From Octopus sinensis (Eukaryota), in contig NC_043005.1 in assembly GCF_006345805.1 (NCBI RefSeq), positions 68,758,001-68,822,000 on the forward strand: a stretch of 64,000 nucleotides of DNA, read 5' to 3'. A program made the position numbers and the translations under genes. Below are positions 12,320 through 14,588 of this stretch, piece by piece; within the stretch, counting starts at the first letter, position 1; each line of letters opens with the position of its first letter. Below the pieces are notes generated by a model. It had not been told where the DNA came from, made no database searches, and saw nothing but the letters and a program-made list of their open reading frames with translations.

Positions 12320-12565
12320 AATAAAATAAAATAATAATAATAAATATATATATATATATTTAAAATTTATAAGTTTAAATTATTTAAATAATTTTTTAAA
12401 TTTTAACTTTAATTTAAATAGTTCAATTTGGAATTTTATATTTTTATATTTTATATTTTATATTTTTTTAATTCATTTTATTTCTATGTATTGGCTTATG
12501 ATTTTCACTGTTTGATTTGCCTAACAGTGGTTTTATTTCTAATTTAATATAAGATATATATATAT

Positions 12566-13072
12566 AACGTAAAGTGTACTAGCCATCTGAATGTGGCTAG
12601 CCACTGGGGGTGGGGTGTTACTGATGCTTTTAGCCCCAGGCGATCAACGTCACCAGATGGACTTTAGACACTATCTCAGTGCCCTTGTGTTATATCTCGT
12701 TCAGAGATTTACTATTGCTTTCAGACAGTTTTTCTAAATCAGTGACAGTGGTTGCTGTGAAAAACATTATATATTATTTGCAAGGGGACTCCTTCATCGA
12801 AGACCGGTGCTTACCATGCGTTGACATGAGGCAATTACCTTGAAACTATAGTCCGTATGTAGTACTTAGGTCTTCGAGGGAGGATGACCTCCCTTTGCAA
12901 ATAGCACAAGGGCACTGAGATAGTGTCTAAAGTCCCTCTGGTGACGTTGATCGCCTGGGGCTAAAAGCATCAGTAACACCCCACCCCCAGTGGCTAGCCA
13001 CATTCAGATGGCTAGTGCACTTTGCGTTGTCGAGCGGTTACTGTTTATATCTCGTTCAGAGATTTACTATTG

Positions 13073-13074
<2 letters not shown>
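12566..13074 (+). mobile_element. Penelope-type pLTR / retrozyme-like unit with inverted 5' segment, flanked by (TA)n
   Basis: A 128-bp inverted repeat (12566-12693 vs 12901-13028, 4 mismatches), a 30-bp direct repeat (12690-12719 vs 13045-13074) and an internal hairpin with an HHR-like core. Confidence 0.7.
12815..12859 (+). ncRNA. Degenerate or variant type I hammerhead ribozyme
   Basis: CAUGCG UUGACAU GAGG CAAUUA CCUU GAAAC UAUA GUC CGUAUG. Stem I, stem II, GAAA, palindromic stem III (ACUAUAGU) and a GUC site are present. The CUGANGA box is altered. Confidence 0.6.
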
Positions 13075-13108
<34 letters not shown>

Positions 13109-13157
13109 TTTTACACTCACACATGCAGACGTGTACACACACACACATATATACACA

Positions 13158-13220
<63 letters not shown>

Positions 13221-14588
13221 ATCTGATATATGCATATATTCTGACGCGAACAGAACTTTTAGTATTTGTTGGAAGACAAAGTTCACTGTACATAGGAGTA
13301 TCATGAAAAAAGTTTCTGATCTAAATACATGCATAAGCATATGCGCATGTACGAATAAATGTATAATCATGTGTAGGCACTAAGTTGCTTGAAGGGAAAG
13401 GAAACCAATGCCTTCGTTCAGTAGCAACATGTGGAAATTAGCAAATTCTATTCCCAACAGCTTCACGTGATTCAATCCAGGATTTGATACGTGCGGACTA
13501 AACAATTAAAGACAAGATATGTCTTATAGGTGTGGACTAAAGAATTAAGAAAAGAACATTTTTACCTTGTTACTTGGCATGAAATGTGTGAATATATTGG
13601 AGTCACTATACTTTTATTTTTTATTTCCTTATTTCCATTTAGTATAGTGGTAAGGGCATGTGGCAATGCATCTTTATGTTGTGTGTCCGTAGGTATGGAT
13701 TACGCAGTTTTTTACGCCTAAAACGATAGATTTTAAATTAAGTTTTACAGTCAGTTGAAATAGGCCGAAATTATTTTCATTCGTAACGCTCTAATCAGAA
13801 TTTAGATAACAAACACCTCATAACAAATACCTCCAGATCTTCAAGCTTAATATCTGACCGCGTTATTCTTTCTAAATACAGCTGATTTTCAAATTCCTCA
13901 TGCTAACGGAAGTTACTAGACATTTTGAGATGATGACGCAAATATACCTCATAAGCTTTGCCTGCATCAAATAGTTGTTATTGTTCAGTCTATAAATAAG
14001 CAGACCAAACATTAAAGGAATTTTGATAGTCGATTTTTTTCCATACCCAATCTATAGGACCGCATCATTTAATGTGTGCATTCATTTGTGACCTATTAGT
14101 TTATAATTTGAGAAAGAATTATTTTCCATTTGTAACACCGTTTTTTTCTTCCCTCAAGGTGTCACTGGTGATAAGGAACTGCAAAAGCGTTTTAATGCGG
14201 GGTATTGACCTAACCTATGTTTATTACTTCAGACGTGGAAATGCTATTACATACATTTAACAACACTTTAACACTTTAACAACAGTCAATCCCTGCATCA
14301 GATGCCAATCCCTGCATCAACAGTCAATCCCTGCCTTTAATCCAAACATTTAGCGAATCAAAATTCTCACTTTCAAATCCAGCTATCCAATTACTCTTGC
14401 ACAAGAGAAGCTATTCTCATACTGCAGAAAGATCCCAACATGTAAGTCAGATATTTCAAATCAACCAAAAACTCTAAGGTGCATAAAGTGTTTGCATAAT
14501 GTCTGTAACAAAGAATATGTATGACCTCGAAGCACCCTGAAACGTTATAAGGAATGGCAAATATCAACTTGCTATCTCTTCATAGATA

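Follow-up and report, generated by a model that had tools for sequence, protein, structure and literature searches.

The insertion in the window and its dispersed family

The window, the whole 64,000-nucleotide stretch of Octopus sinensis DNA analysed here, carries a 509-bp element at 12566-13074, set between two runs of alternating A and T. Its parts are given below in window positions, with "unit" denoting the 355-nt repeat unit of the family to which the element belongs and S1 and S2 the two fixed sites at which the outer (3') ends of that family's insertions lie.

12554-12565, no strand: left target remnant, a short (AT)n run (direct reading)
12566-12693, minus strand: inverted arm A', unit 212 to 339, with its outer end at S2 (unit 339; repeat search and family mapping)
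12690-13074, plus strand: direct arm, a full 355-nt unit (12690-13044) followed by unit 1-30 again, with its outer end at S1
12690-12719, plus strand: B, first copy of the 30-nt direct repeat, unit 1-30 (100% identity to 13045-13074)
12774-12904, plus strand: long hairpin ("rod") with a hammerhead-like motif at its tip (circular MFE folds)
12815-12859, plus strand: hammerhead-like type I motif (alignments, pair counts and majority letters in other copies)
13029-13074, plus strand: 46-nt "tail" between S2 and S1, made of x (13029-13044) and the second B copy (13045-13074)
13075-13106, no strand: right target remnant, a (TA)n microsatellite (TRF)

A repeat search places the inverted arms at 12566-12693 and 12901-13028, where 128 nt are 97% complementary with 4 mismatches and lie 207 nt apart, and finds an exact 30-nt direct repeat at 12690-12719 and 13045-13074, a spacing of 355. 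The first B copy overlaps the inverted arm by 4 nt (12690-12693), and the 46-nt tail is present on one arm only. The original prediction had described this layout as (TA)n-A'-B-C-A-x-B-(TA)n, and it is exact, from the 128-nt arms and the 30-nt repeat at 355 to the TA on both sides. A chance origin is excluded because the 355-nt unit recurs genome-wide at 87-97% identity. RNA spanning both arms folds at −333.9 kcal/mol, compared with −132.5 +/- 5.7 in 100 shuffles (z = −35), a strong fold that is a trivial consequence of the inverted repeat.

The right-hand microsatellite appears in TRF as a row at 13074-13106 of period 2, with 16.5 copies and 100% matches. Rfam matches to mir-297, mir-1277 and mir-3149 at 13070-13247 all fall below their gathering scores and were rejected as miRNA genes, being hairpins of TA/CA microsatellites. 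On the other side, the left flank at 12470-12560 is a very high-copy repeat whose summed contig depth is about 5-20 times that of the element in four DNA runs, and in copies L005, L014 and L084 a similar word (TTATTTATGTATTGG/CCTTATG) adjoins the (TA)n target. The junctions of the window insertion have no bridging contig in the DNA contigs of four organism labels, the microsatellite flanks being without cover.

Used as a query, the 509-bp element has at least 212 matches in its own genome (2.72 Gb) at 87-97% identity, a lower bound that comes from scoring 40 of 2700 first-look candidates; the other copies that a BLASTN-type check had been proposed to reveal thus exist in number. The commonest full match among those listed, query 125-509, consists of one 355-nt unit and its first 30 nt. 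Two family words around the ribozyme-like motif occur 203 times each, compared with 0 for the reversed control, and no second family copy was found within the 64-kb window. The unit has a GC content of 45.4%. The longest ATG ORFs inside the element encode 48 and 45 aa, among 108 ORFs of at least 120 aa from 66 loci none that overlaps an element has a Pfam match, and the RT plus GIY-YIG endonuclease ORF of an autonomous Penelope-like element (PLE) is absent from the family element. The 509-bp element is a single insertion from a dispersed family of non-coding 355-nt repeats, in agreement with the predicted insertion of a non-coding unit of about 355 nt.

Several further properties of the family can be read from genomic and run data. 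Two of its insertions, L088 and L094, occur twice each with identical flanks within 1.5 kb, as the result of segmental duplication. Another repeat (L031:1387-1926; G000 C28:9447387-9447926) is 71-74% identical to unit ~192-323 in tandem pieces of about 80 bp, and the same region has the highest depth in DNA contigs; together these point to a module at unit ~192-323 that is common to other families. Logan contigs from three runs of presumed RNA type and one DNA run hold short family contigs with no readable starts, ends or circle joints. The genomic copies show no excess of A-to-G change over T-to-C, with A>G at 1.30% and T>C at 1.24% (p = 0.75), and give no sign of editing.

Compared with the family majority, the direct unit in the window has 9 changed letters in 355 and the inverted arm 1 in 128; between the two arms there are 4 mismatches in 128. 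With a family median difference from the majority of 3.1%, the insertion is of ordinary age for its family. Its description as "young" is therefore relative, and the insertion is not strikingly young. For Octopus vulgaris repeats, a Jukes-Cantor distance of 0.065 is equated with 18 My in the repeat paper (PMC13282606); if that scale applies, the insertion would be some millions of years old, which is a rough guide.

Ends, arms and templates of 67 insertions

The architecture of the family was mapped in 67 insertions drawn from two sets: 26 loci found with the query, which returned 30 loci of which 4 overlapping duplicates were left out, and 40 loci taken in list order from exact-word hits. The second copies at the segmentally duplicated L088 and L094 were left out of the survey. 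The 106 arms measure 28-994 nt, with a median of 337. More than one unit is present in 48 of them and more than two in 8, always in register and to a maximum of 2.8 units per arm. Inner (5') ends are scattered over the unit, which amounts to variable 5' truncation, and across the 67 insertions they form no peak at the predicted ribozyme cut (unit 164/165). Outer (3') ends, on the other hand, lie at two fixed sites 46 nt apart: S1 at unit 25-34, after a full unit, and S2 at unit 333-341.

Two arms arranged head-to-head are found in 37 of the 67 insertions and a single arm in 29 (10 ending at S1, 14 at S2 and 5 elsewhere); the remaining one is complex. In the two-armed class an inverted 5'-truncated copy stands beside a direct copy inside one target-site duplication (TSD), where a TSD is visible. 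Of the 32 two-armed insertions whose ends can both be assigned to S1 or S2, 30 combine one of each, 2 are S1/S1 and none is S2/S2 (binomial 1.2e-7). The pairing is also seen in the exact-word set alone, found with the motif word and the unbiased one of the two (16 of 17; 7e-5). The arms meet with an overlap of 0-8 nt in 24 of the 37 two-armed insertions and are separated by 1-29 nt in the rest. The window copy, with its S2 and S1 ends in a TA run, is a typical member of this class.

The targets are AT-rich. Runs of (TA)>=4 border both flanks of 24 insertions and one flank of another 13 (37 of 67 in total), compared with a background of 8-13% of positions. Outside (TA)n, 15 insertions have TSD-like words of 10-16 nt common to both flanks, which correspond to true TSDs of about 9-13 nt because the flank comparison included 3 element letters per side; the TSDs are AT-rich as well. 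The junction sequences show no homology between the flank and the template at S1 or S2. An inverted 5' fragment, partial tandem units and a fixed 3' end are the marks of the Penelope-type architecture that had been proposed from the window alone, and the family survey bears them out.

Arms of more than one unit, together with rare variants common to units and arms, indicate that one unit-length template is copied repeatedly in each event. Units of one arm diverge by a median of 0.030 and units on opposite arms by 0.025, compared with 0.055 for units from different loci, and shared rare variants (those below 10% in the family) number 0.45 per 100 nt within an arm, 0.21 between opposite arms and 0.019 between loci. 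At L012 the same 10-nt deletion recurs in two successive units. No bond of the unit is left uncrossed by arms, not even those at the predicted cut site and the unit boundary, and this, with the shared variants, suggests a template that is uncut or re-ligated and either circular or concatemeric. Because genomic arrays are short and each round of copying truncates, multi-unit arms would also need some step that adds units, which could be copying round a circle or jumping between identical RNAs.

Two simpler origins for these features were rejected. The snap-back of a single cDNA as the source of both arms is ruled out by their asymmetric lengths and inner ends, and a Pol III transcript end at S1, where many copies have TTTT, is ruled out by the TTTTT run at unit 40-44.

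At one locus of the 67 (L127:2606-4580; G000 C1:98848606-98850580), a 5'-truncated RT element with an RVT_1 match, a C-terminal zinc-finger-like end and an (ATT)n tail is joined to a family copy precisely at unit 32, just past S1. This junction could be a nested insertion or a hybrid event.

A hammerhead-like motif and an older sister family

When the window unit and a second copy are folded as circles, a check that had been proposed for the monomer, the MFE structures contain a long hairpin over unit 85-215 that carries the hammerhead-like motif at its tip. In the majority copy the motif reads GCG-UUGACGA-GAGG-CAAUUA-CCUU-GAAAC-UAUA-GUC-CGUAUG, where helices I, II and III are 6, 4 and 2 bp long and a palindromic tetraloop caps helix III. 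In the window, helix I is formed by 12815-12820 and 12854-12859, the core box lies at 12821-12827 and helix II at 12828-12841, followed by GAAAC at 12842-12846, the palindromic loop III TATA at 12847-12850 and GUC at 12851-12853, with the predicted cut after 12853.

The invariant core of the hammerhead consists of C3 U4 G5 A6 N7 G8 A9 ... G12 A13 A14, the pair A15.1-U16.1 and H17 (PMC7151607). The family motif has 11 of the 12 core letters on that list, the only deviation being U at position 3, and its 10.1/11.1 pair is G.U. Exact-word counts of the family words in the genome give U3 203 times and C3 0 times, and the contigs of eight runs under four organism labels hold no alternative letter at this position. 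The window copy adds two private changes to this family trait (U3 at 12821), G8A at 12826 and A9U at 12827, at both of which the same eight-run contigs show the family letters. With these two changes besides U3, the window copy is inactive by the consensus rule and is most likely a dead copy, as judged from its letters. The predicted rod tipped by a hammerhead ribozyme therefore survives as a long hairpin with a hammerhead-like tip, but the window core reads UUGACAU in place of the consensus CUGANGA. At the level of the family, the majority keeps a hammerhead-like core, with U3 in place of the invariant C3.

The fold can be compared with that of an older sister family, met beside a PLE fragment at L062:4546-4919 (G000 C6:25718546-25718919) and at L108-L126. 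Its copies are 78-90% alike and resemble the 355-nt unit at about 65-70% over 145-385. They share its 3' end (…ATTTATTATTGCT), are two-armed and lie in (TA)n; a first look for the family gave 3370 candidates. The sister motif has the canonical CUGAUGA box with identical spacings, and its loop III is the palindrome CCGG where the 355-nt family has TATA. Between the families, compensatory changes turn a U-A pair into C-G in helix I and an A-U pair into G-C in helix II, and change both loop III pairs. In an alignment of 25 sequences 93.4% of cells are paired, compared with 84.4% in shuffles, and 0 of 500 shuffles reach the observed value. Six of 14 pairs change on both sides, which represents few independent covariation events because only two lineages are compared; slid controls are 14-52% paired. 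These compensatory changes against the sister family support a hammerhead-like fold.

Rfam gives no hammerhead in the window region at E<=10, in the whole window at the gathering score, at four family loci or in a 121-nt piece, a blank that reflects a limit of sensitivity because three sister-family loci with the canonical CUGAUGA box are missed as well. The drawn hammerhead fold, at −4.7 kcal/mol, is less stable than the monomer MFE of −11.4, which counts against it. Cofolding of a dimer through loop III does not use loop III and is not informative on the dimer.

Minimal hammerheads are known from the pseudo-LTRs of PLEs, where they are described as having a short palindromic helix III, acting as dimers, showing low activity in vitro and covarying at U3-A8 (Cervera and de la Pena 2014, PMC4209133). 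The present motif resembles them, as far as that description extends, in its short helix III, its palindromic loop and the dimer to be expected from it. It differs in two respects: the PLE hammerheads have a U3-A8 pair, whereas here U3 stands opposite G8 as a wobble, and they usually have G-C at 10.1/11.1, where this family has G.U (PMC4209133). The motif is predicted to process multimeric transcripts as a dimer through the palindromic loop III. Given U3 in place of C3 throughout the family, cleavage may be weak or unnecessary for spread.

Probable insertion by Penelope-like machinery, and the alternatives

The footprint of endonuclease-bearing (EN+) PLEs offers a close parallel. Their insertions are described as 5'-truncated, partially tandem and set in (TA)n targets, with an adjacent inverted 5'-truncated copy and a tail of 30-40 bp that is often confined to one end (Craig et al. 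2021, PMC8557442). The purified PLE protein cuts and extends both strands and prefers AT-rich DNA, and its reverse transcription begins inside the RNA at two neighbouring sites, neither of which has homology to the target (Frangieh et al. 2024, PMC11167929). The stretch between these two start sites is the tail of genomic PLEs, a signature that the same study calls unique to PLEs (PMC11167929). In vitro the start sites are the same on top and bottom strand, ribozyme mutants of PLE RNA still insert, and a dimer is predicted for the protein (PMC11167929). The 355-nt family shares with these published accounts its 5' truncation, partial tandems, inverted copy and one-end extension, its AT-rich and (TA)n targets, its use of both strands and its start sites without target homology (PMC8557442, PMC11167929). 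It differs in that EN+ PLEs carry an RT/GIY-YIG ORF and this family has none, and its tail is 46 nt long compared with the 30-40 bp given for PLEs (PMC8557442). The strict pairing of one S1 with one S2 goes beyond what the PLE descriptions drawn on here contain (PMC8557442, PMC11167929).

We are fairly confident that the window element is a two-armed insertion of the 355-nt family made by a PLE reverse transcriptase/endonuclease, with synthesis starting at two template sites. The protein would nick the two strands of an AT-rich target about 10-13 nt apart, and each 3' end would then prime cDNA on the element RNA, one at S1 and one at S2, neither being homologous to the target. The template would be a circular or concatemeric RNA in which the bond at the predicted ribozyme cut is intact. 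The two cDNAs would grow towards each other, stop at scattered points and be joined with an overlap of 0-8 nt, producing the head-to-head pair of arms.

The published enzyme data do not predict the S1/S2 pairing, since the start site does not differ between strands in vitro. We hypothesise that it is a hint of a two-headed complex on one RNA. The fuller proposal, that S1 and S2 on opposite strands reflect an asymmetric two-headed complex with one template and that self-cleavage by the ribozyme is dispensable for retrozyme-type spread in vivo, given the hundreds of copies made by a family with U3 throughout, is possible and rather doubtful.

A search for the autonomous partner covered a sample of PLE families. 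The genome has at least 147 GIY-YIG matches, from scoring 150 of 5029 candidates. It contains a young PLE (L063:1620-5611, L064, L065 and L066) with copies 98-99% alike, a 781-aa open frame with GIY-YIG, (TA)n flanks and a fixed 3' end (…TTTTTTACAAA). Comparison of the unit by blastn with the 30 best GIY-YIG loci and the four young-PLE copies finds no DNA similarity, tblastx finds no translated similarity of the unit dimer to the sampled PLE loci, and a simple hammerhead pattern has no match over those loci. The match at L058/L062 was rejected as a partner, being an independent sister-family insertion in (TA)n beside a PLE fragment.

Since the family footprint is the PLE footprint, the copies might instead be end-pieces of an ordinary autonomous PLE, a solo pseudo-LTR with its tail left by extreme 5' truncation. 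This is improbable, because arms contain as many as 2.8 consecutive in-register units, all lacking ORFs, and in none of the 67 insertions do they run on into an RT or GIY-YIG frame. The sole GIY-YIG hint is about 1 kb away and, at 21.7 bits, below the cut-off, and the unit is absent both from the 30 GIY-YIG loci and from the young 781-aa PLE. Two further readings have hardly any probability left. The window copy, with its inverted arms beside the left end and its TA-rich flanks, has the look of a fold-back DNA transposon (MITE) with 128-bp terminal inverted repeats, yet the right arm of its inverted repeat is internal, because 46 nt follow. Elsewhere the inverted arm varies between 28 and 994 nt or, in the 29 one-armed insertions, is absent, and only the 3' side of the arms is fixed. 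Terminal inverted repeats are thus not constant across copies, which refutes the reading of the element as a MITE and removes one of the conditions that the original prediction had named as refuting it. Tandem units with a 355-nt period, and the segmental duplications at L088 and L094, would fit an immobile piece of satellite or a local duplication with inversion, but copies dispersed over many contigs, each with its own flanks and target-site duplications, refute it.

L1 elements can insert by twin priming, in which a second priming on the other target strand leaves an inverted 5' part inside one TSD and the second primer anneals anywhere by microhomology. The 355-nt family resembles this in having an inverted 5' part that would stem from second priming within one TSD, whereas both of its syntheses start at fixed template sites and its arms overlap in sequence. 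A SINE-like element moved by a LINE, with the inverted arm made in this way, has only a slim chance of being the right account. It would explain the 5' truncation, the TSDs and the frequent 5' inversions; LINE RTs are common around the copies, and in one case a LINE-like RT element directly adjoins a family copy. The copies nonetheless lack a poly(A) or microsatellite tail of their own, since TA runs lie on both flanks, and against this account stand also the two fixed ends 46 nt apart that follow the S1/S2 rule and the tandem units in register. The short palindromic helix III of the motif is, moreover, typical of PLEs and retrozymes in the published description (PMC4209133), and the tail signature is the one called PLE-unique (PMC11167929).

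The family is a new member of a kind already published, a non-LTR retrozyme or a non-autonomous PLE derivative. Metazoan non-LTR retrozymes are described as having units of about 150-450 nt and a link to PLEs, in work on coral, mussel, axolotl and vertebrates (Cervera and de la Pena 2020; Li, Clavereau and Pollet 2026; PMC7229834; bioRxiv 10.64898/2026.07.22.740005). The family shares with those descriptions a small non-coding head-to-tail unit (GC 45.4% here), a hammerhead-like motif of type I whose 2-bp helix III ends in a palindromic tetraloop, and a presumed dependence on PLEs. In contrast to the long arrays reported there, it occurs as short dispersed insertions of at most 2.8 units per arm. 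It also differs in the U3 core of every copy and in being known here from genomic sequence alone. A search of literature listings and text passages found no paper describing elements of this kind in cephalopods, and neither "retrozyme" nor "hammerhead" appears in the main text of the Octopus vulgaris repeat paper.

Most of what is known about PLE insertion and retrozyme spread comes from a single in vitro study and from footprints in genomes. The family is a clean natural data set on both, with short units, sharp ends and many TSD-flanked events, in which the two published PLE start sites are used one per strand within an event. U3 throughout the family, set against C3 in the older sister family, is a natural experiment on the need for hammerhead cutting. 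For annotation, such copies are best treated as PLE-dependent non-autonomous elements and not as MITEs, satellites or miRNA-like hairpins.

Each 355-nt unit contains the word TTCAGA three times; its positions in the window are 12700-12705, 12720-12725, 13003-13008 and 13055-13060. Two of the occurrences fall within hairpin loops and lie 14-20 nt upstream of S1 and S2, where synthesis starts; as a post-hoc observation, TTCAGA is a possible protein-binding word.
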